Assembly: GCF_036365525.1 (NCBI RefSeq)
Contig: NC_090399.1
Coordinates: 50,004,430-50,068,429 of the forward strand
Direction: 5' to 3'
Source: Heterodontus francisci
Taxonomy: Eukaryota
DNA length: 64,000 nt
Of this stretch, positions 14,370 through 62,798 are shown piece after piece. The translations under genes were made by a program, and so were the position numbers. Position 1 is the first letter of the stretch, and every line of letters starts with the position of its first letter. The notes beneath the pieces are model-generated. The model did no database searches and had not been told where the DNA came from. It saw only the letters and a program-made list of their open reading frames with translations.

Positions 14370-17210
14370 GTCCCAGTGGGTAAAAGGGGATGATTCTCTT
14401 CTTTCTGATACTGTATGGTGTATGCATATCTCAGTGCCAGCTCCGGTAAGTTACAGTACACAGTGGGTGAAAGGAGATAATACACTCCTGTCTTGTACTG
14501 TACGGATTGTGTGTGTCTCAGTGTCAGCTCCTGTACAGGCACCACTGGCACCAGCTGGTCCTCATCGTCACAAGGCGAGCCTCTTTAAACAGCTTTCAAA
14601 TCACATGCAGCTTCCACAGTGCGGACTGCGACATCGACCACTTCCTGGTGTGCAGCAAGGTTAGACTCAAACCAAAGAAGCTGCATCATTCCAAGCAGAA
14701 GGGCCGCCCACGCATCAACACTGGCAGAATTTCTCATCCACAGCTGTTACATAAGTTTCTAAATTCACTTGTAACAGCCCTTCAAAACACTCCCACAGGG
14801 GATGCAGGGACCAAGTGGGCCCACATCAGAGACACCATCTATGACTCAGCAATGACCACCGATGGCAATCGTGTGAAGCAGAATGCAGACTGGTTTCAAT
14901 CTCACATTGAAGAGCTGGAACCTGTCATAGCCGCTAAATGCATCGCACTGCTGAACTACAAGAAAGCCCCCAGCGGGTTAACATCCGTAGCACTTAAAGC
15001 AGCCAAAAGCGCTGCACCAAGAACAGCCAGGCGCTGCGCAAATGACTACTGGCAACACCTATGCAGTCATATTCAGCTGGCCTCTGACACCGGAAACATC
15101 AGAGGAATGTATGATGGCATTAAGAGAGCTTTTGGGCCAACCATCAAGAAGATAGCCCCCCTCAAATCTAAATCAGGGGAAACAATCACTGACCAACGCA
15201 AGAAAATGGACCGCCGGGCTGAGCACTACCTAGAACTGTACTCCAGGGAAAATGTTGTCACTGAGACCGCCCTCAATGCAGTCCAGTCTCTGCCAGTCAT
15301 GGATGAGCTGGACGTACAACCAACAAAATCGAGACTCAGTGATGCCATTGATTCTTTAGCCAGTGTAAAAGCCCCTGGGAAGGACGGCATTACCCCTGAA
15401 ATAATCAAGAGTGCCAAGCCTGCTATACTTTCAGCACTGTACGAATTGCTTCGCCTGTGCTGGGATGAGGGAGCAGTACCTCAGGACATGCGCGATGCCA
15501 ATATCATCACCCTCTATAAGAACAAGGGTGACTGCGGTGACTGCAACAACTACCGTGAATCTCCCTGCTCAGCATAGTGGGGAAAGTCTTCACTCGAGTC
15601 GCTTTAAACAGGCTCCAGAATCTGGCTGAGCGTGTCAATCCTGAGGCAAGGTGTGGCCTTCGAGCAGAGAGGTCCACCATTGACATGCTGTTCTCCCTTC
15701 GTCAGCTACAGGAGAAATTCCGTGAACAACAGATGCCCCTCTACGTTGCTTTCATTGATCTCACCAAAGCCTTTGACCTCGTCAGCAGACGTGTTCTCTT
15801 CAGACTACTAGAAAAGATCGGATGTTCACCAAAGCTACTAAGTATCATCACCTCATTCCATGACAATATGAAAGGCACAATTCAGCATAGCGGTGCCTCA
15901 TCAGACCCCTTTCCTATCCTGAGTGGCGTGAAACAGGGCTGTGTTCTCGCACCTACACTGTTTGGGATCTTCTTCTCCCTGCTGCTCTCACATGCTTTCA
16001 AGTCTTCAGAAGAAGGAATTTTCCTCCACACAAGATCAGGGGGCAGGTTGTTCAACCTTGCCCGTCTGAGATCGAAGACCAAAGTACGGAAAGTCCTCAT
16101 CAGGGAACTCCCCTTTGCTGACGATGCTGCATTAACATCTCACACTGAAGAGTGTCTGCAGACTGTCATCGACAGGACTGCGGCTGCCTGCAATAAATTT
16201 GGCCTAACCATCAGCCTCAAGAAAACGAACGTCATGGGACTGGAGGTCGGAAATGCTCCATCCATCAATATTGGCGACCACGCTCTGGAAATGGTTTTGG
16301 AGTTCACCTACCTAGGCTCAGCTATCACCAGTAATCTGTCTATCGATGCAGGAATCAACAAGTGCATGGGAAAGGCTTCCACTGCTATGTCCAGACTGGC
16401 CAAGAGTGTGTGGGAAAATGGCGCGCTGACACGGAACACAAAAGTCCGAGTGTATCAAGCCTGTGTCCTCAGTACCTTGCTCTACGGCAGTGAGGCCTGG
16501 ACAACGTATGTCAGCCAAGAGCAACGTCTCAATTCATTCCATCTTCGCTGCCTCCAGAGAATCCTTGGCATCAGGTGGCAGGACCGTATCTCCAACACAG
16601 AAGTCCTCGAGGCGGCCAACATCCCCAGCATATACACCCTACTGAGCCAGCGACGCTTGAGATGGCTTGGCCAAGGACACATTGTACAGCGAGCTTGTCA
16701 CTGGTATCAGACCCACCAGCCATCCATGTCTCTTCTTTAAGGACATCTGCAAACGCGACATGAAGTCCTGTGACATTGATCACAGGTCGTGGGAGTTAGT
16801 TGCCAGTGATCACCAGAGTTGGCGGACAGCCATAAAGGCGAGGCTAAAGTGTGGCGAGTCAAAGAGACTTAGTAGTTGTCAGGGAAAAAGACAGAAGTGC
16901 AAGGGGAGAGCCAACTATGTAACAGCCCCGACAACCAATTTTATCTGTAGCACCTGTGGATGAGTCTGTCACTCTAGAATTGGCCTTTTTAGCCACTCCA
17001 GGTGCTGCTTCACAAACCACTGACCACCTCCAGGTGCTTACCCACTGTCTCCCGAGACAAGGAGGCCAAAGAAGAAGTGTCAGCTCCTGTACAGGTACAG
17101 TACACAGTGGATAAAAGGAGATGATACACTGCTGTCTGGTACTGTAGTGGGGTATGTATGTCTCAGTGTCAGCTCTTGTACAGGTACAGTGGGTAAAAGG
17201 GAATGTATCA
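14370..17210 (+). repeat. Low-copy ~85-bp tandem repeat (CAGTGGGTAAAAGG...GTGTCAGCTCCTGTACAGGTACAG) split by the RTE insertion
   Basis: Copies start near 14374, 14461, 17105 and 17187. Confidence 0.7.
14540..17076 (+). mobile_element. 5'-truncated RTE-clade LINE (end of APE endonuclease, RT, C-terminal C2H2-like finger), frameshifted, with target-site duplication
   Basis: ORFs 14507-15577 and 15577-16740 with KAPGxDG, FIDLTKAFD, GVKQGCVLAP, FADD; FICSTCG..H finger; GAAGAA tail; exact TSD GTGTCAGCTCCTGTACAGG at 14521-14539 and 17077-17095. Confidence 0.93.
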
Positions 17211-19859: not shown

Positions 19860-21029
19860 TTCTCCTTTAATTCTTATTCCTCCCGTCTTTAACTTTTCCA
19901 TTGTACTGGTGCCTGCGTCCAGTATCTGGACCATTTAGAAATCCGGCACTCATTGAGTTCGCTATTCTTTGTGTCAGCACAGAGTGTCCCACTTGTTCCA
20001 CTAAGGCTGCAGGAGATGACTGTTTCCCTGGAAATAGTTTTGAGGCAGCAGACATCTGATCCAACAGGGAGTCTTTTTCCAAGAACTGAACCCCAGTTAG
20101 AACCAGGAGCCTGTCCATATGCGACACCCTAGCACAATCTAGCATTATAAATGCTAGCGTTGAACCAGGGATCTCCACATTGAATTTCCTCCATCTTTTA
20201 TATTGTCTGTTGAAGTCCACGATATATTTCTCCATTGAATAGCCATCTGTTTTCAAAAATCTATCAAGGTCTGACCATTTCACATAGGTATTTAATGGTC
20301 CATCTTTCTTGCACATCTCATTCAAAAATTCTAACAGAAGATCCAAACCTTCATCAGTATCCAACTAATGAGTATCCAGTTCACAAATTGCTTAAACTTT
20401 TGATTTTACTTTTGGTAGGAAGTGACAATGCCAAGGCCATACCTTGTTTCCTTTTTGGTAGAGACATATTATGTGTCCACATATCCACTTCATTCTTCCA
20501 CTGGTCTTATAGTTCAAACTCAGAGAACATCGGAGCGTAATCGTACCTTGACAATTTTAGAGTCATAGAGAGATACAGCACTGAAACAGGCCCTTCAGCT
20601 CACTGAGTCTGTGCTGACCATCAACCACCCATTTATACCAATCGTACATTAATCCCATATCCCCTACCTTCCCTCAATTCTCCTACCACCTACCTACACT
20701 AGGGACAATTTACAATGACCAATTTAAACATGTATCTGTCATTACCACAATAGCCACTGGGATTTTAGATTTCCATGTGATTTCTTTTTCTTGGTTTCCA
20801 ACGATCACCTTTAGGCAACCATTCTCTGCTACCATGGTATACTCCAGAAAGCTTCTTGTTGAAGGATGATACTGGAGCCAATCTTTACTCAGTTTTGCAT
20901 TTATTTTACGAAGTGAAAAAGTTACAAAAAGGAAGCTCCTCACTTAAACCTTCACCCAGTTTCACTAAAATGTCTGCTTACATATATTCAAGAAGCCCGC
21001 CATCTGCATATGATTAAACACAATTAACA
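19860..21029 (-). mobile_element. Copia-like (GalEa-type) LTR retrotransposon remnant: 5' LTR ~21029-20835, tRNA-iMet PBS 20834-20817, degenerate gag
   Basis: Minus strand TGTTAA...CA LTR followed directly by TGGTAGCAGAGAATGGTT (17/18 complementary to the vertebrate tRNA-iMet 3' end). Gag-like DQWKNEVDMW..KQGMALALSLP..LDTDEGLDLLLEFL..LAF..LDCA. Confidence 0.7.
20558..20730 (-). mobile_element. SINE fragment (HE1/V-SINE-like with CR1-type tail) inserted into the LTR element
   Basis: TAGAGTCATAGAG...CAGCACTGAAACAGGCCCTTC tail and CCTACACTAGGGACAATTTA body motif typical of shark SINEs, recognised from memory. Confidence 0.55.
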
Positions 21030-21151
21030 TACAGAACCCAGGGGTCAAAGGGCAAGGTGCAGTACACCACTACACTGAACCCAGCCCCGGAGTGAAATGT
21101 AACAAAACATTAATGCAAAGCAGCAAAAGATCCATCCGGCCAGTTATCTTG

Positions 21152-21278
21152 TTAGATGCAACAGTGAGGCTGCTCAGGTTTGCAGTCACTCGCCAGTGTA
21201 ACAGAGAGCATCTCCATGCTGTCTTCCCAGCTGCGCAGCTGGTGAGAGTCTTGGATTGAATGAGGAATCAATGCTCGT
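21152..21278 (-). other. Probable terminal exon of the class I-like gene (3' UTR in the current frame; former cytoplasmic-tail exon if exon 5 is frameshifted)
   Basis: Strong polypyrimidine acceptor ctcctcccatttctccttcccag|AC about 250 nt after the exon-5 donor. Phase-2 reading is open: RALIPHSIQDSHQLRSWEDSMEMLSVTLASDCKPEQPHCCI*. Confidence 0.5.
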
Positions 21279-21334
21279 CTGGGAAGGAGAAATGGGAGGA
21301 GATTAGAGATGGAATATTGCCATTTATTAACTTG

Positions 21335-21465
21335 TTTCCTTGTTCGTGCATTTCCTACATTACAACAGTGACTACACTTCAAAAAGTACTTCATCAGCTG
21401 TAAAGTGCTTTGAGATGTCAGGTGCTCATGAAAGGCGCTATAGAAATGCAAGTCTTTCTTTTTTG
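21335..21465 (+). mobile_element. 3' part of a Deu-domain SINE (SacSINE1/AmnSINE-like) in the last intron
   Basis: TTTCCTACATTACAACAGTGACTACACTTCAAAAAGTACTTCAT...GAAAGGCGCTATAGAAATGCAAGTCTTT; the same tail occurs at 56520-56610 and 62480-62580. Confidence 0.75.
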
Positions 21466-21567
21466 TCAAGTTACTTGTTTTTAGGTTGATGATTAAGATG
21501 TGGGACTGGGATGCGTGATCTTACTCACCTGCGCTTAGACCTTTCCTCTCTCCTAATGTTCTGTTCT

Positions 21568-21653
21568 CTAAACCTCTCCTGCGATTATTGCCAGCACAGC
21601 TAAGAGCCCCAGCACTGGGCCAGGACTAATAATCTCATTCGACCCTCCGGATT
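21568..21653 (-). CDS. Class I-like exon 5, connecting peptide plus hydrophobic segment ending in TAG (ESGGSNEIISPGPVLGLLAVLAIIAGEV*)
   Basis: Acceptor tttttacctggtgtgcag|AA. Phase-1 reading gives a linker plus hydrophobic stretch. The exon continues past the stop to a strong donor CAG|GTGAGT at 21529. Confidence 0.72.
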
Positions 21654-24600
21654 CTGCACACCAGGTAAAAACACATACAGCACATTAAGGGACATTAACA
21701 GTGAAGTACGAGAAGTTGAAGATAATAACCCACTTCGCCAGGAGTGTTTATGTCACTGACAATGGGGGCAACCCTCAGCTCACACACCCCAACCAGCACC
21801 CCCCTCCCCCCGCAACAGCATTCGACCCAACAATGGAGCAGCTACACTTTCAATTTTGGAATTGATAGGTTTTGGGTGACAACCAATGGGCCCCCGTTTT
21901 ACACCCGACCCCACATTTCTTTTCCATTGAGTGGGTAAAACAGAGCTACGGATTCACACTTGCCAGTTTCCGTGTTACTGCCCGAGGTCAGTTTCACCAC
22001 CCGAGAGCTTGAGAACGGCCCATCTTGGATTGTCCATCAGCGGCTGGTGAGATCCATTTTTAAGGAAAACCATTCCGCAGGATTTCTATAGGAAGTGGCT
22101 TTCGGTTGAATATTGTCAAGCATTGGCTAAAGATTGCCTGTATCCTATTGCAATGATATATCCAATGCAATCGAAGACCATGGACAGAATTTTTAACCAG
22201 ACCAACTCGTTGGCAGTGGATGATTGCCTGGGGGTGGTGGGTCAGGAATCCGCTTGTGAAAGAAGTGGGCTTTGCCGTGGCTGTTTATCTCAGCCGTGGC
22301 ATTAATATCGCGCCTCCGGGTTTCCCAACCAGTCACAGAGTACAGGCGTGGTGATGACCCGCAACCATCAATGGAAGGATTTCTATTTAAAGGGAGCACC
22401 CCCTCCCCACCCTGCTCAATTAGGGGTCTGAATGGCTGCATCTGAGCATCTGGTTCCTGAGGCTTCAGCAAGCACAAGAATGAAAGTGCAAGGTGGAAAT
22501 TCTGCTCCCCGGTTCTCTGACTCTTCCCTGGAGATCCTACCGTGGGCTGCAATGGCCTGCAGAGCAGTATTGTTTCCTGTGGCTGGAAGTGGCAGACACA
22601 GTAAGCAGTAGACTTTTACATCTTTCCTGAATTGGGGTGCCCAGAATTGGGCACGATACTCCAGCTGAGGCCTAGCCAGTAATTTATAAAGTTCCAGCAT
22701 GATCTCTTTGCTTTCGTATTCTTGTGCCTTTAATTATTAACCCAAATGCTCGTAAAACCACCTGATCAACTTGGCCTGCCCGTGTTTTGAAGGAATTATG
22801 TATAGGACACCAAGGTCACCAATACTTTTCAAAATCTACCCATTTACAGTTAAATGTCTTTCCACATCTGTCCTTCCAAAGTACATCACCTGACATGTCT
22901 CCACATTGAACTCCATCCACCAGATGTTTTTGAACATCTGTGAACTTTATAATGCTGCTCCCTACATCGTAGACAAAATCGTTTATAAAAACTGAAAAGA
23001 GCAATGGACTCAAAACTGACCCTCAGGAAACGTCAGCGTGTCTGAAAAACATCCACCCCCACGAACCTTCACTTCCTGTCACTGAGATATTTATGTATCC
23101 ATAACGCTGCTTCCCCCTTAATTCCATGGGCTTCCATCTTCTTAATAAGCCTCCTGCATGGCAGTTTGTCGAACGCTTTCTGAAAGTCCATATATATATA
23201 TATATATATATAATATCTACTGCACGACTTTCTCTGTTACCTCAAAGAATTCAGTCAAGTTAGACAGACAAGATTTATCTTTAACATTTCCGTGCTGTCT
23301 CTCCCTGAGTAAAACAAACCTTTCCAACTGAAAGGCTGAGGTCATGAACTCCCCGGTCTGCTGAGTGACTATTTGCCCCCCGACCTCACCGGCTGTACCT
23401 GAATCTGTTCATGTCTTTGTGGTTTAATTTCAGTCAGTCTCCAGCCCGGTGCTGGTCGAGTTCTATAGTTAGGCCTCTCCTCACTCTTCCATGTATTTTT
23501 CAAAACTCTCTTTCCCTCCATTTTACCTCTATCTCGTTGACTCATGACTAATAAAGGGTAAATAAGTTAAATCTGTTTCCAGTGGCAGAAGCATCAGTAA
23601 CTAGAGGACACAGATTTAATATAACTGCAGGGCTATGAGGAAAGAGAGAGGACAAGCAGGCCTATATTGAATAGTGCTTTAAAAGAACTGCACAGGCATG
23701 ATGCGCCAAATGTTGTCTTTTGTGCAGCATCATTGTATGATAACTTACCTGACCTCACTATCAGAGTCTTGGACAGGCTGCTGTGTTGAACCTGACAGGA
23801 GTAGTCATTTGCGCCAATGCCTTCAATGTTAATGAGGATTTCCATCCTGTATGTCGCATCATGGTTTGGTAAAACTGTCACACTAAGGTGGTCTGACACA
23901 GGTTCGTCATTCCTCAGCCAGGTGGCATTGATGGCACGTGGGTAGAAGGCAGTGATGAGGCACAAGAGGGTTCTGGGCACCCCACCAGTGAAGTTCCTTT
24001 GGAAAAGCAGCACCTGAGGAGCAACTGGGGAAGAACTGAGAATCAAATCACTATTTCTATAAACTCGATAACACATTCAGCAAAGAGAACCAGATCACAC
24101 TCAGTATCTGCATCCAAATCACACTCTGCATCTGGATCCAGATCACACTCAGTATCTGCATCCAAATCACACTCTGCATCTGGATCCAGATCACACTCAG
24201 TATCCAGATCCAGATCAGACTCAGCATCCCGATCCAGATCACACTCAGTATCCGGATCTAGATCACACTCTGCATCTGGATCCAGATCACACTCAGTATC
24301 CAGATCCAGATCAGACTCAGCATCCCGATCCAGATCACACTCAGTATCCAGATCCAGATCAGACTCAGCATCCCGATCCAGATCACACTCAGTATCCAGA
24401 TCCAGATCAGAATCAGCATCCGGATCCAGATCACACTCAGTATCCAGATCCAGATCAGACTCAGCATCCCGATCCAGATCACACTCAGTATCCAGATCCA
24501 GATCAGACTCAGCATCCGGATCCAGATCACACTCAGTATCCAGATCCAGATCAGACTCAGCATCCCGATCCAGATCACACTCAGTATCCAGATCCAGATC

Positions 24601-27600
24601 AGACTCAGCATCCGGATCCAGATCAGACTCAGTATCTGGATCCAGATCACACTCAGCATCTGGATCCAGATCACACTCTGCATCCGGATCCAGATCACAC
24701 TCAGTATCCGGATCTAGATCACACTCAGCATCCCGATCCAGATCACACTCTGCATCCGGATCCAGATCACACTCAGTATCTGCATCCAATTCACACTCTG
24801 CATCTGGATCCAGATCACACTCAGTATCCAGATCCAGATCACACTCAGCATCCCGATCCAGATCACACTCAGCATCCCGATCCAGATCACACTCAGGATC
24901 CGGATCTAGATCACACTCAGCATCTGCATCCAAATCACACTCTGCATCCGGATTCAGATCACACTCAGTATCCAGATCCAGATCACATTCTGCATCCAGA
25001 TCCAGATCACACTCAGCATCCCGATCCAGATCAGACTCAGTATCCGGATCCAGATCACACTCAGTATCCAGATCCAGATCACACTCAGTATCCGGATCCA
25101 GATCAGACTCAGTATCCGGATCCAGATCACACTCTGCATCCCGATCCAGAGCAGACTCAGTATCCAGATCCAGATCACACTCAGCATCCCGATCCAGATC
25201 ACACTCAGTATCCAGATCCAGATCACACTCAGTATCCGGATCCAGATCACACTCTGCATCCGGATCCAGATCACACTCAGCATCCTGATCCAGATCACAC
25301 TCAGTATCCGGATCCAGATCACACTCTGCATCCGGATCCAGATCAGACTCAGCATCCCGATCCAGATCAGACTCAGTATCCGGATCCAGATCAGACTCAG
25401 TATCTGGATCCAGATCAGACTCAGTATCCGGATCCAGATCACACTCTGCATCCAGATCCAGATCAGACTCAGTATCCCGATCCAGATCACACTCAGAATC
25501 CGGGTCCAGATCACACTCAGTATCCGGATCCAGATCACACTCAGCATCCCGATCCAGATCACACACATTATCCAGATCCAGATCACACTCTGCATCCGGA
25601 TCCAGATCACACTCAGCATCCTGATCCAGATCACACTCAGTATCCGGATCCAGATCACACTCAGTATCCAGATCCAGATCAGACTCAGTATCCAGATCCA
25701 GATCAGACTCAGTATCCGGATACAGATCACACTCAGTATCCGGATCCAGATCAGACTCAGTATCCAGATCCAGATCACACTCAGTATCCCGATCCAGATC
25801 ACACTCAGTATCCGGATCCAGATCACATTCAGTATCCGGATCCAGATCACACTCAGTATCCGGATCCAGATCAGAATCAGTATCTGGATCCAGATCACAC
25901 TCAGTATCCAGATCAGACTCAGTATCCGGATCCAGATCAGACTCAGTATCCGGATCCAGATCACACTCAGCATCCCGATCCAGATCACACTCAGTATCCG
26001 GATCCAGATCACACTCTGCATCCCGATCCAGATCACACTCTGCATCCGGATCCAGATCACACTCAGCATCCCGATCCACATCACACTCAGTATCCGGATC
26101 CAGATCACACTCAGCATCCCGATACAGATCACACTCAGTATCTGGATCCAGATCACACTCAGTATCCGGATCCAGATCACACTCTGCATCCGGATACATA
26201 TCACACTCAGAATCTGGATCCAGATCACACTCTGCATCCGGATACAGATCACACTCAGCATCCCGATCTAGATCACACTCAGTATCCAGATCCAGATCAG
26301 ACTCAGTATCCAGATCCAGATCACACTCTGCATCCGGATCCAGATCACACTCAGTAACCGGATCCAGATCAGACTCAGTATCCAGATCCAGATCACACTC
26401 AGCATCCCGATCCAGATCACACTCAGAATCCGGATCCAGATCACACTCTGCATCCGGATACAGATCACACTCAGCATCCCGATCCAGATCACACTCAGTA
26501 TCCGGATCCAGATCAGACTCAGTATCCGGATCCAGATCACACTCAGCATCCCGATCTAGATCACACTCAGTATCCAGATCCAGATCAGACTCAGTATCCA
26601 GATCCAGATCACACTCTGCATCCGGATCCAGATCACACTCAGTATCCGGATCCAGATCAGACTCAGTATCCAGATCCAGATCACACTCAGCATCCCGATC
26701 CAGATCACACTCAGTATCCAGATCCAGATCACACTCTGCATCCGGATCCAGATCACACTCAGCATCCAGATCCAGATCACACTCAGTATCTGGATCCAGA
26801 TCACACTCAGTATCCAGATCCAGATCACACTCAGCATCCCGATCCAGATCACACTCAGTATCCAGATCCAGATCACACTCTGCATCCGGATCCAGATCAC
26901 ACTCAGCATCCCGATCCAGATCACACTCAGTATCCGGATCCAGATCACACTCAGCATCCCGATCCAGATCACACTCAGTATCCGGATCCAGATCAGACTC
27001 AGTATCCGGATCCAGATCACACTCAGCATCCCGATCCAGATCACACTCAGTATCCAGATCCAGATCACACTCTGCATCCGGATCCAGATCACACTCAGCA
27101 TCCCGATCCAGATCACACTCAGTATCCGGATCCAGATCACACTCAGCATCCCGATCCAGATCACACTCAGTATCCGGATCCAGATCACACTCAGTATCCG
27201 GATCCAGATCACACTCAGCATCCCGATCCAGATCACACTCAGTATCCGGATCCCGATCACACTCAGTATCTGGATCCAGATCACACTCTGCATCCGGATC
27301 CAGATCACACTCTGCATCCCGATCCAGATCACACTCAGTATCCGGATCCAGATCACACTCAGTATCCGGATTCAGATCACACTCAGCATCCAGATTCAGA
27401 TCACACTCAGCATCCTGATCCAGATCACACTCAGTATCCCGAACCAGATCACACTCAGTATCCGGATCCAGATCACACTCAGTATCCGGATTCAGATCAC
27501 ACTCAGCATCCCGATCCAGATCACACTCAGTATCCGGATCCAGATCACACTCTGCATCCCGATCCTGATCACACTCAGTATCCGGATCCATATCACACTC

Positions 27601-30600
27601 AGTATCCGGATCCAGATCACACTCTGCATCCCGATCCTGATCACACTCAGTATCCAGATCCAGATCAGACTCAGTATCCAGATCCAGATCACACTCAGCA
27701 TCCTGATCCATATCACACTCAGTATCCAGATCCAGATCACACTCAGTATCCGGATCCAGATCACACTCTGCATCCGGATCCAGATCAGACTCAGTATTCG
27801 GATCCAGATCACACTCAGTATCCGGATCCAGATCAGACTCAGTATCCGGATCCAGATCACACTCTGCATCCGGATCCAGATCACACTCTGCATCCGGATA
27901 CATATCACACTCAGCATCCCAATCCAGATCAGACTCAGTATCCAGATCCAGATCACACTCAGCATCCCGATCCAGATCACACTCAGTATCCGGATCCAGA
28001 TCATACTCTGCATCCGGATACAGATCACACTCAGTATCCGGATCCAGATCAGACTCAGTATCCAGATCCAGATCACACTCAGCATCCCGATCCAGATCAG
28101 ACTCAGTATCCGGATCCAGATCACACTCAGCATCCCGATTCAGATCAGGCTCAGTATCCAGATCCAGATCACACTCAGTATCCGGATCCAGATCACACTC
28201 TGCATCCGGATCCAGATCAGACTCAGTATCCGGATCCAGATCACACTCTGCATCCCGATCCAGATCAGACTCAGTATCCAGATCCAGATCACACTCAGCA
28301 TCCAGATCCAGATCACACTCAGTATCTGGATCCAGATCAGACTCAGTATCCGGATACAGATCACACTCAGCATCCCGATCCAAATCACACTCAGTATCCC
28401 GATTCAGATCAGGCTCAGTATCCAGATCCAGATCACACTCAGTATCCGGATCCAGATCACACTCTGCATCCGGATCCAGATCAGACTCAGTATCCGGATC
28501 CAGATCAAACTCTGCATCCGGATCCAGATCAGACTCAGCATCCCGATCCAGATCAGACTCAGCATCCAGATCCAGATCACACTCAGTATCTGGATCCAGA
28601 TCACACTCAGTATCCGGATCCAGATCACACTCAGCATCCCGATCCAGATCACACTCAGCATCCAGATCCAAATCACACTCAGTATCCGGATCCAGATCAC
28701 ACTCAGTATCTGGATCCAGATCACACTCAGTATCCGGATCCAGATCACACTCTGCATCCGGATCCAGATCACACTCAGCATCCCGATCCAGATCACACTC
28801 AGCATCCGGATCCAGATCACACTCATTATCCGGATCCAGATCACACTCAGTATCTGGATCCAGATCACACTCTGCATCCTGATCCAGATCAGACTCAGTA
28901 TCCAGATCCAGATCAGACTCAGTATCCGGATCCAGATCACACTCTGCATCCCGATCCAGATCACACTCAGCATCCAGATCCAGATCAGACTCAGTATCCG
29001 GATCCAGATCACACTCTGCATCCTGATCCAGATCAGACTCAGTATCCAGATCCAGATCAGACTCAGTATCCGGATCCAGATCACACTCTGCATCCTGATC
29101 CAGATCAGACTCAGTATCCAGATCCAGATCAGACTCAGTATCCGGATCCAGATCATACTCTGCATCCTGATACAGATCACACTCAGCATCTGGATCCAGA
29201 TCACACTCAGCACCTGGATCCAGATCACACTCTACACCCTGGTCCAGATCACACTCAGCATCCGGATCCAGATCACACTCAATATCCGGATCCAGATCAC
29301 ACTCTGCATCCTGATCCAGATCAGACTCAGTATCCAGATCCAGATCAGACTCAGTATCCGGATCCGGATCACACTCTGCATCCGGATACAGATCACACTC
29401 AGCACCTGGATCCAGATCACACTCTGCACCCTGGTCCAGATCACACTCAGCATCTGGATCCAGATCACACTCAGCACCTGGATCCAGATCACACTCTGCA
29501 CCCTGGTCCAGATCACACTCAGCATCCGGATCCAGATCACACTCAGCATCTGGATCCAGATCACACTCAGCACCTGGATCCAGATCACACTCTACACCCT
29601 GGTCCAGATCACACTCAGCATCCGGATCCAGATCACACTCAATATCCGGATACAGATCACACTCTGCATCCGCATCCGGATCACACTAAGTATCCGGATA
29701 CAGATCACACTCAGTATCCGGATCCAGATCACACTCTGCACCTTGATCCATATCACACTCAGCATCCCGATCCAGATCACACTCTGCATCTGGATCCAGA
29801 TCACACTCAGTATCCCGATCCAGATCACACTCTGCATCCGGATCCAGATCACACTCTGTATCCGGATCCAGATCACATTCTGCATCCAGATCCAGATCAC
29901 ACTCAGCATCCCGATCCAGATCACACTCAGTATCCAGATCCAGATCACACTCAGCATCCCGATCCAGATCACACTCAGCATCCGGATCCAGATCACACTC
30001 AGTATCCGGATCCAGGTCACACTCTGCATCCGGATCCATATCACACTCAGCATCCCGATCCAGATCAGACTCAGTATCCGGATCCAGGTCACACTCTGCA
30101 TCCGGATCCAGATCACACTCTGCATCCGGATCCAGATCACACTCAGCATCCCGATCCAGATCAGACTCAGTATCCAGATCCAGATCACACTCAGCATCCC
30201 GATTCAGATCAGGCTCAGTATCCAGATCCAGATCACACTCAGTATCTGGATCCAGATCACACTCTGCATCCGGATCCAGATCAGACTCAGTATCCGGATC
30301 CAGATCACACTCAGCATCCCGATCCAGATCAGGCTCAGTATCCAGATCCAGATCACACTCAGTATCCGGATCCAGATCATACTCTGCATCCAGATCCAGA
30401 TCAGACTCAGTATCCAGATCCAGATCAGACTCAGCATCCGGATCCAGATCACACTCTGCATCTGGATCCAGATCACACTCAGTATCCGGATCCAGATCAC
30501 ACTCAGTAACCGGGTCCAGATCACACTCAGCATCTGGATCCAGATCACACTCAGTGTCCGGATCCAGATCACACTCAGTATCCGGATCCAGATCAGACTC

Positions 30601-33600
30601 AGTATCCAGATCCAGATCAGACTCAGTATCCGGATCCAGATCACACTCTGCATCCTGATCCAGATCAGACTCAGTATCCAGATCCAGATCACTCTCTGCA
30701 TCCCGATCCAGATCAGGCTCAGTATCCAGATCCAGATCACACTCAGTATCCGGATCCAGATAACACTCTGCATCCGGATCCAGATCAGACTCAGTATCTG
30801 GATCCAGATCACACTCAGCATCTGGATCCAGATCACACTCTGCATCCGGATCCAGATCACACTCAGTATCCGGATCCAGATCACACTCTGCATCCGGATC
30901 CAGATCACACTCTGCATCCGGATTCAGATCACACTCAGTATCCAGATCCAGATCACACAGTATCCGGATCCAGATCACACTCAGCATCTGGATCCAGATC
31001 ACACTCAGCACCTGGATCCAGATCACACTCTGCACCCTGGTCCAGATCACACTCAGCATCCGGATCCAGATCACACTCAATATCCGGATCCAGATCACAC
31101 TCTGCATCCGGATCCGGATCACACTCAGTATCCGGATCCAGAACACACTCTGCATCCGGATACAGATCACACTCAGCATCTGGATCCAGATCACACTCAG
31201 CACCTGGATCCAGATCACACTCTACACCCTGGTCCAGATCACACTCAGCATCCGGATCCAGATCACACTCAATATCCGGATACAGATCACACTCTGCATC
31301 CGCATCCGGATCACACTAAGTATCCGGATACAGATCACACTCAGTATCCGGATCCAGATCACACTCTGCACCTTGATCCATATCACACTCAGCATCCCGA
31401 TCCAGATCACACTCAGTATCCCGATCCAGATCACACTCTGCATCCGGATCCAGATCACACTCTGTATCCGGATCCAGATCACATTCTGCATCCAGATCCA
31501 GATCACACTCAGCATCCCGATCCAGATCACACTCAGTATCCAGATCCAGATCACACTCAGCATCCCGATCCAGATCACACTCAGCATCCGGATCCAGATC
31601 ACACTCAGTATCCGGATCCAGGTCACACTCTGCATCCGGATCCAGATCACACTCAGCATCCCGATCCAGATCAGGCTCAGTATCCAGATCCAGATCACAC
31701 TCAGTATCCGGATCCAGATCACACTCTGCATCCGGATCCAGATCAGACTCAGTATCCAGATCACACTCAGCATCCCGATTCAGATCAGGCTCAGTATCCA
31801 GATCCAGATCACACTCAGTATCCGGATCCAGATCACACTCTGCATCCGGATCCAGATCAGACTCAGTATCCGGATCCAGATCACACTCTGCATCCCGATC
31901 CAGATCAGACTCAGTATCCAGATCCAGATCACACTCAGCATCCCGATCCAGATCAGGCTCAGTATCCAGATCCAGATCACACTCAGTATCCGGATCCAGA
32001 TCACACTCAGCATCTGGATCCAGATCACACTCTGCATCCAGATCCAGATCAGACTCAGTATCCGGATCCAGATCAGACTCAGTATCCGGATCCAGATCAC
32101 ACTCTGCATCTGGATCCAGATCACACTCAGTATCCGGATCCAGATCACACTCAGTAACCGGATCCAGATCACACTCAGCATCTGGATCCAGATCACACTC
32201 AGTGTCCGGATTCAGATCACACTCAGTATCCGGATCCAGATCGCACTCTGCATCCAGATCCAGATCAGACTCAGTATCCGGATCAAGATCACACTCTGCA
32301 TCCCGATCCAGATCAGACTCAGTATCCAGATCCAGATCACACTCAGCATCCCGATCCAGATCAGGCTCAGTATCCAGATCCAGATCAGACTCAGTATCCA
32401 GATCCAGATCACACTCTGCATCCGGATCCAGATCACACTCAGTATCCGGATCCAGATCAGACTCAGTATCCAGATCCAGATCAGACTCAGTATCCAGATC
32501 CAGATCACTCTCTGCATCCCGATCCAGATCAGGCTCAGTATCCAGATCCAGATCACACTCAGCATCCCGATCCAGATCAGGCTCAGTATCCAGATCCAGA
32601 TCAGACTCAGTATCCAGATCCAGATCACACTCTGCATCCGGATCCAGATCACACTCAGTATCCGGATCCAGATCAGACTCAGTATCCCGATCCAGATCAC
32701 ACTCAGTATCCAGATCCAGATCACACTCAGCATCCCGATCCAGATCAGACTCAGTATCCAGATCCAGATCACTCTCTGCATCCCGATCCAGATCAGGCTC
32801 AGTATCCAGATCCAGATCACACTCAGTATCCGGATCCAGATAACACTCTGCATCCGGATCCAGATCAGACTCAGTATCTGGATCCAGATCACACTCAGCA
32901 TCTGGATCCAGATCACACTCTGCATCCGGATCCAGATCACACTCAGTATCCGGATCCAGATCACACTCTGCATCCGGATCCAGATCAGACTCAGTATCTG
33001 GATCCAGATCACACTCAGCATCTGGATCCAGATCACACTCTGCATCCGGATCCAGATCACACTCAGTATCCGGATCCAGATCACACTCTGCATCCGGATC
33101 CAGATCACACTCTGCATCCGGATTCAGATCACACTCAGTATCCGGATCCAGATCACACTCAGCATCTGGATCCAGATCACACTCAGCACCTGGATCCAGA
33201 TCACACTCTGCACCCTGGTCCAGATCACACTCAGCATCCGGATCCAGATCACACTCAATATCCGGATCCAGATCACACTCTGCATCCGGATCCGGATCAC
33301 ACTCAGTATCCGGATCCAGAACACACTCTGCATCCGGATACAGATCACACTCAGCATCTGGATCCAGATCACACTCTGCATCCGGATCCAGATCACACTC
33401 TGCATCCGGATCCAGATCACACTCTGCATCCGGATTCAGATCACACTCAGTATCCGGATCCAGATCACACTCAGCATCTGGATCCAGATCACACTCAGCA
33501 CCTGGATCCAGATCACACTCTGCACCCTGGTCCAGATCACACTCAGCATCCGGATCCAGATCACACTCAATATCCGGATACAGATCACACTCTGCATCCG

Positions 33601-36600
33601 CATCCGGATCACACTAAGTATCCGGATACAGATCACACTCAGTATCCGGATCCAGATCACACTCTGCACCTTGATCCATATCACACTCAGCATCCCGATC
33701 CAGATCACACTCAGTATCCTGATCCAGATCACACTCTGCATCCGGATCCAGATCACACTCTGTATCCGGATCCAGATCACATTCTGCATCCAGATCCAGA
33801 TCACACTCAGCATCCCGATCCAGATCACACTCAGTATCCAGATCCAGATCACACTCAGCATCCCGATCCAGATCACACTCAGCATCCGGATCCAGATCAC
33901 ACTCAGTATCCGGATCCAGGTCACACTCTGCATCCGGATCCAGATCACACTCAGCATCCCGATCCAGATCAGACTCAGTATCCAGATCACACTCAGCATC
34001 CCGATTCAGATCAGGCTCAGTATCCAGATCCAGATCACACTCAGTATCCGGATCCAGATCACACTCTGCATCCGGATCCAGATCAGACTCAGTATCCGGA
34101 TCCAGATCACACTCTGCATCCCGATCCAGATCAGACTCAGTATCCAGATCCAGATCACACTCAGCATCCCGATCCAGATCAGGCTCAGTATCCAGATCCA
34201 GATCACACTCAGTATCCGGATCCAGATCACACTCAGCATCTGGATCCAGATCACACTCTGCATCCAGATCCAGATCAGACTCAGTATCCGGATCCAGATC
34301 AGACTCAGTATCCGGATCCAGATCACACTCTGCATCTGGATCCAGATCACACTCAGTATCCGGATCCAGATCACACTCAGTAACCGGATCCAGATCACAC
34401 TCAGCATCTGGATCCAGATCACACTCAGTGTCCGGATTCAGATCACACTCAGTATCCGGATCCAGATCGCACTCTGCATCCAGATCCAGATCAGACTCAG
34501 TATCCGGATCAAGATCACACTCTGCATCCCGATCCAGATCAGACTCAGTATCCAGATCCAGATCACACTCAGCATCCCGATCCAGATCAGGCTCAGTATC
34601 CAGATCCAGATCAGACTCAGTATCCAGATCCAGATCACACTCTGCATCCGGATCCAGATCACACTCAGTATCCGGATCCAGATCAGACTCAGTATCCGGA
34701 TCCAGATCACACTCTGCATCCGGATCCAGATCACACTCAGTATCCGGATCCAGATCACACTCAGTATCCGGATCCAGATCACACTCAGTATCCAGATCCA
34801 GATCACACTCAGCATCCCGATCCAGATCACACTCAGCATCCGGATCCAGATCACACTCAGTATCCGGATCCAGGTCACACTCTGCATCCGGATCCAGATC
34901 ACACTCAGCATCCCGATCCAGATCAGACTCAGTATCCAGATCACACTCAGCATCCCGATTCAGATCAGGCTCAGTATCCAGATCCAGATCACACTCAGTA
35001 TCCGGATCCAGATCACACTCTGCATCCGGATCCAGATCAGACTCAGTATCCGGATCCAGATCACACTCTGCATCCCGATCCAGATCAGACTCAGTATCCA
35101 GATCCAGATCACACTCAGCATCCCGATCCAGATCAGGCTCAGTATCCAGATCCAGATCACACTCAGTATCCGGATCCAGATCACACTCAGCATCTGGATC
35201 CAGATCACACTCTGCATCCAGATCCAGATCAGACTCAGTATCCGGATCCAGATCAGACTCAGTATCCGGATCCAGATCACACTCTGCATCTGGATCCAGA
35301 TCACACTCAGTATCCGGATCCAGATCACACTCAGTAACCGGATCCAGATCACACTCAGCATCTGGATCCAGATCACACTCAGTGTCCGGATTCAGATCAC
35401 ACTCAGTATCCGGATCCAGATCGCACTCTGCATCCAGATCCAGATCAGACTCAGTATCCGGATCAAGATCACACTCTGCATCCCGATCCAGATCAGACTC
35501 AGTATCCAGATCCAGATCACACTCAGCATCCCGATCCAGATCAGGCTCAGTATCCAGATCCAGATCAGACTCAGTATCCAGATCCAGATCACACTCTGCA
35601 TCCGGATCCAGATCACACTCAGTATCCGGATCCAGATCAGACTCAGTATCCGGATCCAGATCACACTCTGCATCCGGATCCAGATCACACTCAGTATCCG
35701 GATCCAGATCACACTCAGTATCCGGATCCAGATCACACTCAGCATCTGGATCCAGATCACACTCAGCACCTGGATCCAGATCACACTCTGCACCCTGGTC
35801 CAGATCACACTCAGCATCCGGATCCAGATCACACTCAATATCCGGATCCAGATCACACTCTGCATCCGGATCCAGATCACACTAAGTATCCGGATCCAGA
35901 TCACACTCAGTATCCGGATCCAGATCACACTCAGCATCTGGATCCAGATCACACTCTGCACCCTGTCCAGATCACACTCAGCATCCGGATCCAGATCACA
36001 CTCAATATCCGGATCCAGATCACACTCTGCATCCGGATCCGGATCACACTAAGTATCCGGATACAGATCACACTCAGCATCTGGATCCAGATCACACTCA
36101 GCACCTGGATCCAGATCACACTCTACACCCTGGTCCATATCACACTCTGCATCCGGTTCCAGATCACACTCTGCACCCGGATCACAGTTACACTCCGAAC
36201 CTGGATCCAGATCACATTCTGCACCCGGATCTCAGTCACACTCTGAACCTGGATTCAGATCACACTCTGCACCCGGATCACAGTCACACACTGATCTAGG
36301 ATCCAGATCACACTCTGCACCCGGATCTCAGTCACACTTTGCACCTGGATCTAGATCACACTCTGCACTTGGACCCTAGTCACACTCTGCACCAGGATCC
36401 TGATCACACTCTGCACCAGGATACCAGTCACACCCTGCACCAGGATACCAGTCACACTCTTCACCCGGATCCCAGTCACACCCTGCACTAGGATCCCAGT
36501 CACACTCTGCACCCGGATCCCAGTCACACCCTGCACCAGGATCCCAGTCACACTCTGCACCAGGATCCTGATCACACTCTGCACCAGGATCCCAGTCACA

Positions 36601-39600
36601 CTCTGCACCAGGATCTTGATCACACTCTGCACCCGGATCCCAGTCACACCCTGCACCAGGATCCCAGTCACACTCTGCACCAGGTCCTGATCACACTCTG
36701 CACCCGGATCCCAGTCACACCCTGCACCCGGATCACAGTCACACTCTGCACCCGGATCCCAGTCACACTCTGCACCAGGATCCCAGTCACACTCTGCACC
36801 AGGATCCTGATCACACTCTGCACCTGGATTCTAATCACACTCTGCACCTGGATCCAGATCACAATCTGCACCTGGATGCTGATCACACTCGGCACCCAAA
36901 TCCCAGTCACACTCTGCACCCGGATCCAGATCACACTCTGCACCTGGATCCAGATCACACTCTGCACCTGGATCCCAGTCATGCTCTGCACCCGGATCCC
37001 AGTCACACTCTGCACCTGGATCCCAGTCACACTCTGCAACAAGATCCCAGTCACACTCTGCATCCGGATCCAGATCACACTCTGCACCTGGATCCAGATC
37101 ACACTCTGCACCTGGATCCCAGTCATGCTCTGCACCTGGATCTCAGTCACACTCTGCATCCGGATCCCAGTCACTGTCTGCACCCGGTTCCAGATCACAC
37201 TCTGCACCCGTATCCCGATCACACTCTGCACACGGATCCCAGTCACTGTCTGCACCCGGTTCCAGATCACACTCTGCACCCGTATCCTGATCACACTCTG
37301 CACATGGATCCCAGTCACACTCTGCACCCGGATCCAGATCACACTCTGCACCTGGATCCCAGTCATGCTCTGCACCTGGATCTCAGTCACACTCTGCATC
37401 CGGATCCCAGTCACTGTCTGCACCCGGTTCCAGATCACACTCTGCACCCGTATCCTGATCACACTCTGCACATGGATCCCAGTCACACTCTGCACCCGGA
37501 TCCAGATCACACACTGCACCTGGATCCAGATCACACACTGCACCTGGATCCAGATCACACTCTGCACCTGGATGAGGATCACACTCTGCACCTGGATCCC
37601 AGTCACTCTCTGCACCCGGATCCCGATCACACTCTGCACCCGGATCCAGATCACACACTGCACCTGGATTCAGATCACACTCTGCACCTGGATGAGGATC
37701 ACACTCTGCACCTGGATCCCAGTCACTGTCTGCACCTGGATCCCGATCACACTCTGCACCTGGATGAGGATCACACTCTGCACCTGGATCCCAATCACAC
37801 TCTGCACCCGGATCCCAGTCACTGTCTGCACCCGGTTCCAGATCACACTCTGCACCCGTATCCCGATCACACTCTGCACACGGATCCCAGTCACACTCTG
37901 CACCTGGATCCCGATCACACTCTGCACCCGGATCCAGATCACACACTGCACCTGGATCCAGATCACACTCTGCACCTGGATGAGGATCACACTCTGCACC
38001 TGGATCCCAGTCACTCTCTGCACCCGGATCCCGATCACACTCTGCACCCGGATCCAGATCACACACTGCACCTGGATTCAGATCACACTCTGCACCTGGA
38101 TCCCGATCACACTCTGTACCCGGATCCCGATCACACTCTGCACCCGGATCCCGATCACACTCTGCACCCGGATCCCAATCACACTCTGCACCCGGATCCC
38201 AATCACACTCTGCACCCGGATCCCAGTCACACATTGCACCTGGATTCCAGTCACACTCAGCACCCGGATCCCAGTCACACTCTGCACCCGGATCCCGATC
38301 ACACTCTGCACCTAGATCCCAGTCACACTCTGCACCTAGATCCCAGTCACACTCTGCACCTGGATCCTGATCACACTCTTCCCCATGGGTCCAGATCACA
38401 CTTTGCACCTGGATACCAGTCACACTCTGCACCTGAATCCCCATCACCCTCTACACCTGGATCCTGATCACACTTTGCACCCGGATCCCAATCACAGTCT
38501 GCACCTGGATCCAGATCACACTCTGCACCTGGATCCCAGTCACCGTCTACACCCAGATTCTGATCATACTTTACACCTGGATCCCAATCACAGTCTGCAC
38601 CTGAATCCAGATCACACTCTGCACCTGGATCCCAATCACACTCTACACCCAGATCTAGATCACACCCTGCGCCCGGATCCAGATCACACTCTGCACCTGG
38701 ATCCCAGTCACCCACTACACCCGGATCCAGATCACATTCTGCACCCGGATCCCGATCACACTTTGCACCTGGATCCCAATCACACTCTACACCCGGATCC
38801 CGATCACACTCAGCACCTGGATGCAGATCACATTCCGTATGTAAATGATGGTTTTCCACTTGCCTTTTCTTTCCAGAGCTGCTTTACCAGCTGCAAGGGT
38901 TTTCTGCAGATTTTGAATACAGCCTTCGCGCAGTGACTTGATAAAAGTGATATCGGTGGTTAGCATTTGTTGAAATTCATTCTGCAGCATGCTAAAAATG
39001 CCTTCTGCCTTGCAATGCATGGTGGCCGTGTCACATTCAATCTCTCCAAGCATGCCAGTGTATATCTTTACAAAGCCGATGGTGCTGTTGTTGTTGTATT
39101 GTGTGCAGCTCCAGAGTCCCTGAAGGTATGTCACAGCTGGAAATGATCAACAGGTCGAGCAGGCATTATTGTCAGAACTCTCCAATCCCCTCGCCATTGA
39201 ATAGCGTCTCTGATACCCGAGTGAGTAAATGTACCGTCCGCAGAGGTACAGAGAAGGAAGACCCGACAAGAGACTGTGGTGAGTGACTCTACTCTTGCTC
39301 TAGTTTCTCTCTTGTCTCCCCTCATGCCCTCTCCAAGTTCGTCTTTTCCATGGGATGCACATCCAGCTCCCTCGACCCCATTCCCACTGAACTGCTGGTC
39401 ACCCAACTTCCCATTGTGTTGTGTGTCCAGTACTTTAGGAAGGATGTGAAGGTATTGGAGGGGTACGGAAAGGTGCGAGAATGTTTCTGGGTGATGAGGG
39501 AATTCTGTTACGTGGATAGATTGGAGAAGCTGGGCCTGTGCTTTATAGAGAAGAGAAGGTTGTCAGGAGATTTGACAGCAGTGTTCAAAATCACGAGGGG

Positions 39601-42600
39601 TCGAGACAGAGTAGATAGAGAGAAACTGTTCCCAGGGTCCGGAACCAGAGGACATCGATTTAAAGCGAATGACAAAAGAACCAGAGGGGACATGAGGAAA
39701 ACGATTTTTACACAGTAAGTGGTTAGAATCTGGAATGCACTGCCTGAGAGTGTGGTGGAGGTAGGTTCAATCAAGGCCTTCAAAACTGAATTGGATAGTT
39801 ATCTGAAGATAAAAGATTTGCACGGATACAGGGGAAAGGCAGCGCAGTAGAAGTAGCTGTGTTTCTCTTGCAGCGAGCTGGCACAGACACGACGGGTCGA
39901 ATGACCTCCTTCTGTGCTGCTAGCCATTCTATGATTCACTGATTCTATTCTCTTCCTGGGTCCCATGTTACCTGACATTAATGATTCTCCCTCCTCAGAG
40001 GAGTTCTGTCCCTCTCTGCTTCAAATCTGCTCTCATCATTCGTCTCCTTAAAAAAACCAACCCTTGACCCCCACCATCCTTGCAAGCTCCCTTTCTTCTC
40101 CATACTTCTTGAATGCGTTGCCACCTCCCAAATCCGTGCCCATATTTCCTGGAACTCCATGGTTGAATCCCTCCAATCATGTTTCCGCCCCCTGCCACAG
40201 TACCGAAATGGCTCTTATCGAAGTCATAAATGACATCCTATGTGATTGTGACAAAGGTAAACTTTCCCTCCTCGTCCTTCTCGACCTGTCTGCAACCTTT
40301 GACACGGTTGACCACACCATCCTCCTCCAACGCCTCTGCACTGTTGTCCAGTTGAATGGGACTGCCCTCACCTGGTTCCATTCTTCTGTAGTTAATCATA
40401 CCCAGAGTATCACTTGCAATGGCTTCTCTTTCTGCTCCTGCACTGTTATCTCTAGTTTCCCCCAAAGATCTATCCTTGGCCCCCTCTTATTTCTCATCTA
40501 CCTGCTGCCCCTCAGTAACATCATCCAAAAGTGCAGTATTAGTTTTCACATGTGCACTGACGACACCCAGCTTTACCTCACCACCGCCTCTCTCGACTCC
40601 TCCGCTGTTGCTAAATTATCAGACTGCTTATCTGACATCCAGTACTGGATAAACAGAAATTTCCTCCAATTTAATATTGGGAAGACTGAAACCATTGTCT
40701 TAGTGCCCTCAAACACGGTTCCCTAGTTACCAACTCCATCTCTCTCTCTCTCTCTCTCTCTCTAGCTCAAACTAAAACAGACTGTTGACAACCTTCGTGT
40801 CACATTTGACCCCAAGATGAGTTTCCAATCACATATTTGCACCATTACTGAGACTGCCTATTTCCACCTCCATCACATCTCCTGCTTGCCCCCTGCCTCA
40901 TCTCCTCTGCTGGTGAAACCCTCCTGCCTTTATTAACTCCTGGCCAGTCTCCCATATTCTAGTCTCCATTAACTTGAGCCCTTTCAGAACTCTGCTGCCT
41001 ATTCCTTAACTCGCACCAAGTCCCATTCACCTATCACCATGTACTCACTGACTTACATGGACTTCCTGTCAAGCAACGTTTTGATTTTAAAATTCTCATC
41101 CGTGTTTTCAAATTCCTCCAAGGCCTCACCTCTCCCTATCTCTGGAATCTCCTCCAGGCCTACAACCCTCTGAGATATCTGCACTTCTCTAATTCTGGCC
41201 TCTTGTGCATCCCCGATTTTAATCACTCCACCATTGCTGGCTGTACCTTCAGCTACTGAGGCCTTAAGAGCTGGAAATCCCTCCCGAAACCTCTCCACCT
41301 CACTCACACACTTTACTCCTTTAAGAGCTCCTTAAGACCTACCTCTTTGACCAAGCTTTTGGGCATTTAACCTAATGTCTCCTTAGGTGGTCGGGGGCAC
41401 ATTTTGTTTGGTTACTCTCGTTTAAAGGACTTTGGGACATTTTATTATGTTAAAGGCACAATATATTGTTATTATCTTTTTGTCCTTGTAATTCTGTAAC
41501 TGGAGAGGTGAAGAACCTATTCTCGATGTCTCTTGTGAGCAATAATTCCCACTAAGAAACCTTTGATATGATTGACACATTGGCATCTACCCAGCATGCA
41601 GTTCGGCTTTAACCTACAAGGGCAACAGAGGTCAAATGAAACGCACCAAGCAATCCGAGGAATGGAGCGACCTTACTGGAGAGAAGCTGTTGAAGAGCGT
41701 TTGCAGTCTTAGTCTGCTGCACCCAGTAGTCATCTGTAAAATTGTCGACCATCCATAGCTGCCTGGGCACGCTCTTCTTGAGGTTGCTGTCGTAGTACTG
41801 GGTCTGCAGGTCATCCAGCATCCTGACCACAGAGAGCTCTGGCAGGCCAAGGAGAGGGGTGCTGTAGATGTAGCGAGACATCAAAGTGTGGGAGCCTGAG
41901 GGAAAGTTGCAGAGAAGGATTGTGAATGTGGGAGGGGCCCAAACCTGCAGATTGTGAACCACCTTTGACCTCTAGCCTCCAGGAGAAGGAGCAGGACATA
42001 GAACATAGGAAATAGGAGCAGGAGTAGACCAAACGGCCCATCGAGTCAGCTCCGCCATTCAATAAGATCATGGCTGACCCTTGACTTCAATTCCACTTTC
42101 CCACCCGCTCCCCATATTCTTGATTTCCCGAGCGACCAAAAAATCTGTCTGTCTCAGCTCTAAATATATTCAACGATGGAGCATCCACCACCCTCTGGGG
42201 TAGAGAATGCCAAAGGTTCACAACCCTCTGAGTGAAGACATTTCTCCTCCTCCCAGTTCCAAGTGATCACCCCATTATCCTGAGACTCTGCCCTCGTCTT
42301 CCAGATTCCCCAGGCAGGAACAACAACCTCTCAGTGTCAACCCCTTCAGAATCTTGTATGATTCAATGAGATTACCTCTCATTCTTCTGAACTCCAGCGA
42401 GTACAGACCCAATTTGCTCAGCCACTCATCAGAGGACAACCCTCTCATTCCCAGGGACCAACCTAGTGAACCTTCACTGCACCGTCTCTAAGACGAGTAT
42501 GCCCTTCCTTAGGCATGGAGACCAAAACCATAAATAGGGCTCCAGGTGTGGTCTCACCAAAGTCCCGTATAATTGCCGCAAGGCTTCCTTATTCTTGTTC

Positions 42601-62654: not shown

Positions 62655-62798
62655 CATTCTTTAAACACCAGCCCAGTCCGGAGTTCTTTCCATTTTTATA
62701 CTTGTACAAAACAGCAGCAACAGCACCGATGAAGCAAAGCAAGACAATCACCAAAACGATAGAGACAATTATCCCCGTTTTCGAACCATTGCGTTCAT
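62655..62798 (-). CDS. Transmembrane exon of a second type I membrane protein gene whose 5' part lies beyond the window (DERNGSKTGIIVSIVLVIVLLCFIGAVAAVLYKYKNGKNSGLGWCLKN)
   Basis: Acceptor ttcttgttcactcag|AT, donor ATG|GTAAGA, 144 nt phase 1-1; ~23-aa hydrophobic segment followed by basic stop-transfer YKYK. Confidence 0.8.

Follow-up and report, generated by a model that had tools for sequence, protein, structure and literature searches.

The window, a 64,000-nucleotide stretch of Heterodontus francisci DNA (contig NC_090399.1), contains on its minus strand a five-exon gene that, judged from sequence and predicted fold, is the orthologue of nurse-shark UFA (PDB 8GM8). The 320-aa model proposed in a preliminary description of the locus is correct, and its five exons give a protein identical to RefSeq XP_067865432.1 (P0003). 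The exons of the gene, and one exon of a neighbouring gene that serves as a control, are as follows.

50663–50741, minus strand: leader exon, encoding a 26 aa signal peptide and the first base of the next codon.
41647–41895, minus strand: alpha1 exon.
38864–39136, minus strand: alpha2 exon, with the extra Cys144/Cys151 that are typical of UFA.
23749–24024, minus strand: alpha3 (Ig C1) exon, the last beta strand comprising residues 288–291.
21529–21653, minus strand: anchor exon of 125 nt, consisting of 28 codons, the stop and 39 nt of 3'UTR, followed by a GTGAGT donor.
20888–21278, minus strand: next and apparently last exon, fully untranslated; the joint 21278–21529 is present in two contigs.
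62655–62798, minus strand: anchor exon of the upstream class I neighbour (control), encoding a full transmembrane helix and then basic residues.

The leader is the sole hydrophobic ATG-to-GT candidate in the 41.9–62.5 kb region; it has a hydrophobic core, and leaders align among the orthologues. The alpha2 exon ends in a GC rather than a GT donor (window 38864–38858, minus strand; a GC-AG intron), in agreement with the RefSeq model. An alternative alpha1 donor, GTAAGG at 41676 (minus strand), lies 30 nt upstream of the main one and gives isoform X2 (310 aa), in which the alpha1 helix is 10 residues shorter at its end, so that the groove would change. The intron between alpha2 and alpha3 (24040–38800, about 15 kb) is nearly all short-period tandem repeat, and further repeat arrays occupy about 1–7 kb, 7–14 kb and 57–62 kb of the window. 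Downstream of the gene, positions 14471–16963 (plus strand) hold what we take to be LINE-type reverse transcriptase remnants, broken across several frames.

UFA is a low-copy gene in this genome: the next alpha3 matches are 41–46% identical (among the 150 of 304 candidates that were scored), and the DNA of the anchor exon has a single match. Among the 50 alpha3 matches listed, 37 fall on the contig of the window, and UFA thus lies within the MHC class I cluster. The upstream class I neighbour (L071, L072) matches, at 60–74% per exon, the gene that lies upstream of UFA in Scyliorhinus, which indicates that the local gene order is conserved. This neighbour was considered as a UGA gene and rejected, as it matches the UGA structure 9CH4 only with E 2e-22 and UGA maps to another locus (L017); it is possibly UDA, in single copy.

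The best PDB match of the encoded protein is 8GM8, the shark nonclassical MHC class I molecule UFA (E 1.3e-87, 53% identity), and the next chain is 9CH4 (UGA; E 4.6e-36). A structure model calculated from a 75-row alignment has a mean pLDDT of 88, and fold comparison with this model again returns 8GM8 as the best entry (Z 26.3, rmsd 2.0, 257 aligned residues). The first structure model, from an 11-row alignment, reached a pLDDT of 49.8 and was used only for PDB titles. In a quick tree of 52 ectodomain rows, whose topology follows the shark and ray groups, the window protein groups with 8GM8 and eleven sequences from sharks and rays in a 13-row clade with an SH-aLRT support of 100. The likeness to nurse-shark UFA thus comprises a common clade, the extra alpha2 cysteines, the low copy number and the location in a class I cluster, while the crystal construct differs in that it ends at the end of alpha3 (265 aa). 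The Cys pair 144/151 is nearly invariant in UFA and absent in classical-like sequences; Heptranchias lacks both residues.

The groove is nonclassical, with loss of the peptide-anchor residues: at the eight positions that we take to be the peptide anchors, only Y59 is kept, as judged by eye in an alignment with classical-like sequences. UFA and UGA have been described as CD1-like and single- or low-copy, with lipid binding cited as a personal communication (PMC12562908), and UFA has also been described as CD1-like and lipid-binding on the basis of unpublished data (PMC10751288). The word GPI is absent from the main texts of both papers, where the type of anchor is undescribed.

The anchor exon (21653–21529, minus strand) follows an acceptor reading ...TGCAG and, read in phase with the alpha3 exon, translates as ESGGSNEIISPGPVLGLLAVLAIIAGEV followed by the stop. 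It is organized into the following elements.

21643–21651, minus strand: omega-site candidates S294 (S-G-G) and G295 (G-G-S), according to the rule in PMC10491789.
21616–21642, minus strand: spacer S297–P305, ending in a Pro that is kept in 14 of 14 orthologous C-termini.
21571–21615, minus strand: hydrophobic run V306–V320, 15 aa, C-terminal, with one Glu at −2 and a predicted helix at 306–319.
21568–21570, minus strand: TAG stop, without a cytoplasmic tail.

The preliminary description stated that the exon ends right after the hydrophobic segment with neither basic stop-transfer residues nor a tail, that two more in-frame stops follow and that the stop lies 39 nt upstream of the donor. All of this holds, the two additional stops being TAG at 21555–21553 and TAA at 21537–21535. 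Nonsense-mediated decay follows a rule of 50–55 nt, and with a stop 39 nt before the last junction the transcript is expected to escape it. A contig of run X5 reaches position 20888, 12 nt beyond an AATAAA at 20905–20900; contigs do not prove an RNA end, and this reach fits the untranslated exon being the last. The proposed omega candidates fared unequally: S294 (S-G-G) passes the small-residue rule, and G-S-N, with G296 as omega, fails owing to the Asn at omega+2. G295 (G-G-S) also passes. G296 is the column used by most UFA orthologues, and it is in the Heterodontus protein that Asn stands at +2.

Two ways of gaining a tail were examined and rejected. A weak donor-like GTTTAG at 21573 (minus strand) overlaps the last codon and the stop; if used, it would append a 30-residue open frame of the next exon (21278–21186) as a tail, but the site is weak and neither spliced contig uses it, among the joints listed. 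The alternative frame past the hydrophobic part is open and basic, and a frameshift would restore a tail; this is taken as chance because the orthologues stop in the same register.

Sequencing reads were inspected in 4 of the 24 listed runs, aligned to window positions 20700–24070. A DNA contig of run X1 covering 21438–22685 shows 0 differences and 0 gaps. A 1648-nt spliced contig of run X5 has the canonical joints 23749/21653 and 21529/21278 and likewise shows 0 differences; as this contig carries the exon, the stop is present in a spliced transcript. X1 and X5 derive from one sample (S1), possibly the source of the assembly itself, and X5 and X13 are taken as RNA by guess and from their spliced joints. 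The X13 contig, from organism B, has the same two joints, and its exon is 126 nt long with four substitutions and one gap; the position of the extra base (from_end 39, compared with 38 expected at 21566) suggests that it sits after the stop. Run X17 (organism D) is uninformative, with no piece listed over the anchor exon. The TAG at 21570–21568, for which a check in reads, cDNA and orthologues had been recommended, is confirmed in the DNA contig and the spliced contig, and the orthologues stop in the same register.

A set of 22 UFA-type records was gathered by similarity searches; these are gene models, not protein data. The tail-less hydrophobic end is found in the same register in 17 of the 22, and is present in each of the 11 shark and ray genera that have a full-length model. 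These are the sharks Heterodontus, Pristiophorus (partial name), Heptranchias, Mustelus, Scyliorhinus, Cetorhinus, Carcharodon and Chiloscyllium, and the rays Narcine, Hemitrygon and Hypanus. The remaining five records are the crystal ectodomain (P0010), two GenBank hypothetical models (P0008 and P0011) from species that also have tail-less RefSeq models, and two RefSeq isoforms from Narcine (P0012 and P0017) without any hydrophobic segment. A transmembrane helix of about 20 residues followed by basic residues and a tail, as in ordinary transmembrane class I molecules, occurs in 0 of the 22 UFA records. An indel that would restore such an end was likewise sought in the coding part of the reads, and none was found there.

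Elasmobranchs divide into two sister lineages, the sharks and the rays (PMC10751288). The presence of the tail-less end in both indicates that it predates their split. The divergence of sharks and rays dates back roughly 270–300 million years. The end noted in the preliminary description is real, and it characterizes the UFA lineage as a whole, in sharks as well as rays, rather than a single species. No holocephalan UFA appears among the named matches of the similarity searches, which does not imply its absence. Two stingrays have a second UFA-like record (P0033 in Hemitrygon and P0169 in Hypanus) of 231 aa, without alpha2 and with the same tail-less end; lacking alpha2, these records are outside the tree and were assigned to UFA by similarity, and they could represent a skipped-exon isoform of a paralogue.

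The UFA end was compared with the published pattern of GPI signals, which comprises a small omega residue, a non-Pro residue at omega+1, a small residue at omega+2, a spacer of 8–12 residues and a hydrophobic stretch of 15–20 residues, the hydrophobicity of which must fall within a narrow, non-crossing window (PMC10491789). The hydrophobic tail of the signal starts at omega+10 (PMC2571997). The test set consisted of 14 non-redundant UFA C-termini, from which three duplicate isoforms and the five exceptions were left out. As controls, 84 of 146 other matches were retained that have an alpha3 motif and a hydrophobic segment of 15–32 residues within 60 residues; these exclude Ig heavy chains, and the filter for a long segment partly builds in their helix length.

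An omega triad located 10–15 residues before the start of the hydrophobic segment was found in 14 of 14 UFA sequences and in 6 of the 84 transmembrane class I controls; the corresponding Fisher P of 1e-12 overstates independence, as the UFA sequences are related. With a window of 8–14 residues, 16 of the 84 controls carry the triad. S294 and G295 lie 12 and 11 residues, respectively, before V306. The distance from the second alpha3 Cys to the C-terminus is 41–46 residues in UFA and at least 49 in the 84 controls, and the hydrophobic run is followed by 0–4 residues in all 14 UFA sequences, compared with a median tail of 30 in the controls. The control helix has a median length of 22 and is followed by at least two Lys/Arg in 78 of 84 sequences, compared with 0 of 14 in UFA. 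The best 19-residue insertion score, computed without positional terms, ranges from +1.2 to +5.8 in UFA, whereas the control median is −3.7 and 3 of the 84 controls exceed +1. The upstream neighbour's anchor exon (62798–62655) scores −4.8 (dG19). The UGA relatives P0040, P0041 and P0049 keep a helix of 19–21 residues and a basic tail. Within the set of sequences examined, the tail-less end is specific to UFA.

RGM proteins and alkaline phosphatases are GPI-anchored in mammals. The Heterodontus genome supplied seven positive controls of this kind, the final exons of four RGM genes and of three alkaline phosphatase genes. At a distance of 8–14 residues, 5 of these 7 ends pass (L025 and L040 fail), and at a distance of at least 10 residues, 4 of 7 pass and 3 fail. 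Their insertion scores, −0.6 to +4.6, are like the range seen in UFA, and the hydrophobic runs of those that pass measure 12–18 residues. Ly6/uPAR genes were sought as additional positive controls and none were found, and the glypican matches sought for the same use stop short of the last exons.

The UFA signal also has features that fit the pattern less closely. The hydrophobic run after the Pro has 15 residues in 12 of the 14 sequences and 13 in two lamniform sharks, compared with the 15–20 of the pattern. In 5 of the 14, a charged residue (Glu, Arg or Lys) stands 2–4 positions from the C-terminus; charges within the helix of a GPI signal can reduce transamidase activity (PMC10491789). No omega column is kept in all species, the common column being occupied by Arg in Chiloscyllium and Pro in Narcine. 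In GPI proteins, omega tends to be preceded by a polar linker of about 10 residues that has no fixed structure (PMC10491789); in the folded model of UFA, only 2–3 coil residues separate the omega candidates from the last alpha3 strand (288–291).

UFA combines a signal peptide, an omega triad with spacer and a terminal hydrophobic stretch without a tail, and the layout that the preliminary description recognized as GPI-signal architecture (small-residue omega candidates, a Pro-containing spacer and a terminal hydrophobic stretch) is upheld by the rule-based test. On these grounds, UFA is probably GPI-anchored.

The 15-residue helix could instead stay uncleaved and act either as a short, tail-less membrane anchor or as an ER/Golgi retention segment. 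The AF2 prediction of a helix at 306–319, the short linker and the lack of an invariant omega column are in line with such a role, as are the 3 of 84 transmembrane controls with tails of at most five residues and the ability of proULBP2 to reach the surface on its uncleaved signal (PMC10491789). We regard this alternative as unlikely, given that none of the 14 UFA sequences has a favourable insertion score, that the Lys/Arg residues after the helix, nearly general in the controls, are missing throughout UFA, and that a correctly spaced small-residue triad is found in each of the 14.

The same positive insertion scores would suit a molecule that is mainly secreted, a ZAG-like soluble lipid carrier with a tip too weak to hold the chain and not a substrate of the transamidase. 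The Narcine isoforms P0012 and P0017 have no hydrophobic segment, and if the anchor exon were skipped in the gene of the window, translation would end three residues beyond alpha3. Secretion, however, has no evident need for a Pro-delimited run of such constant length, and both spliced contigs contain the anchor exon, with no skip joint among the joints listed; this explanation, too, has little probability. A third possibility, that an assembly error or a recent disabling mutation has placed the stop in what is otherwise a normal transmembrane class I gene, could be argued from an exon length of 125 nt, which is not a multiple of 3, from the open and basic frame after the hydrophobic part and from the 126-nt exon with one gap in organism B, but it is extremely improbable, as assembly error or a pseudogene is ruled out by the exact match of the DNA and spliced contigs, by the four upstream exons, which are all open and equal to the RefSeq protein, and by the conservation of the end in the same register across 11 genera.

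If UFA is GPI-anchored, its marginally hydrophobic tip would be held by the GPI transamidase after import into the ER, and the chain would be cut at a small residue about 10–13 positions before the hydrophobic run, namely S294 or G295. The cut heavy chain would be joined to GPI, and mature UFA would reside on the outer leaflet without a cytosolic part. A tail-less molecule could not carry cytosolic sorting motifs, and lipid would then be loaded or carried in the secretory pathway or at the surface. Release by phospholipase, or by skipping of the anchor exon, could yield a soluble form. A single origin of the signal, before sharks and rays diverged, is most likely: an ancestral transmembrane exon would have been shortened and closed by a stop, leaving the following exon as 3'UTR. 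The fuller reading of UFA as a GPI-anchored, lipid-binding and CD1-like molecule, already fixed in the shared ancestor of sharks and rays, is tentative, somewhat short of probable.

UFA shares features with several known systems. Mouse Qa-2 (H2-Q7/Q9) is a GPI-anchored class Ib molecule with a soluble form that arises when exon 5 is lost (PMC6292030). Qa-2 and UFA are both class Ib molecules with alpha1–alpha3, and share, by prediction, the logic of their anchors; Qa-2 is, however, a rodent molecule loaded with peptide (PMC6292030), whereas UFA keeps one of the eight peptide-anchor residues and is not a Qa-2 member. We infer that the two anchors are of independent origin, Qa-2 being outside the tree. 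The Hypanus orthologue P0167 bears the automatic NCBI name 'H-2 Q7 alpha chain-like', which is a label and not evidence.

ULBP/RAET1 and RAE-1 are class I-like, some of them GPI-anchored (PMC6769792, PMC10491789); ULBP/RAET1 proteins are without alpha3 and beta2m, and their grooves tend to be closed (PMC6769792). UFA has an alpha3 domain and is not a member of this group. The preliminary description had envisaged a GPI-anchored class I-like ligand; the anchor part of this proposal is in agreement with the rule-based signal, while the protein is the CD1-like UFA, for which a ligand role in the ULBP/RAE-1 sense, with binding to NK receptors, would be a separate assumption. The predicted GPI anchor of UFA is best read as convergent with those of mouse Qa-2 and human ULBP.

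Most CD1 molecules carry tail motifs for endosomal sorting. CD1 and EPCR have class I-like grooves for hydrophobic ligands, and CD1 is transmembrane (PMC6769792); UFA, reported as CD1-like (PMC12562908), differs from CD1 in having no tail. CD1 is not among the best 50 entries of the fold comparison, which neither supports nor excludes kinship. UGA (PDB 9CH4) represents a second CD1-like class Ib lineage (PMC12562908), only 26–29% identical to UFA and equipped with a transmembrane helix and a basic tail.

UFA is a candidate ancient CD1-like molecule of jawed vertebrates that is so far known from its ectodomain structure, and the sites at which it can encounter lipids and T cells depend on its anchor. 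A GPI anchor would imply residence in rafts and enzymatic shedding, and would make UFA a GPI-linked MHC class I molecule outside mammals in which a lipid groove is combined with a lipid anchor. Sharks would then have two lipid-binding class I routes, one through tailed UGA and the other through tail-less, raft-resident and sheddable UFA. The conversion of a class I transmembrane exon into a GPI signal, known from mammalian Qa-2/ULBP, would have a separate origin in cartilaginous fish and would have persisted in sharks as well as rays. A search of largely open-access literature found no paper that connects GPI with UFA or with class I molecules of sharks; the primary description of UFA lies outside that literature, and its authors may already have noticed the tail-less end.

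The UGA gene of Heterodontus is probably L017 (G000:C29:49567168-49570401), about 460 kb from UFA on the same contig. Its alpha2 is 71% identical to P0040, which in turn matches 9CH4 with E 2e-114. Cluster paralogues at L013–L016, L018 and L019 have alpha2 and alpha3 exons just about 120 nt apart.
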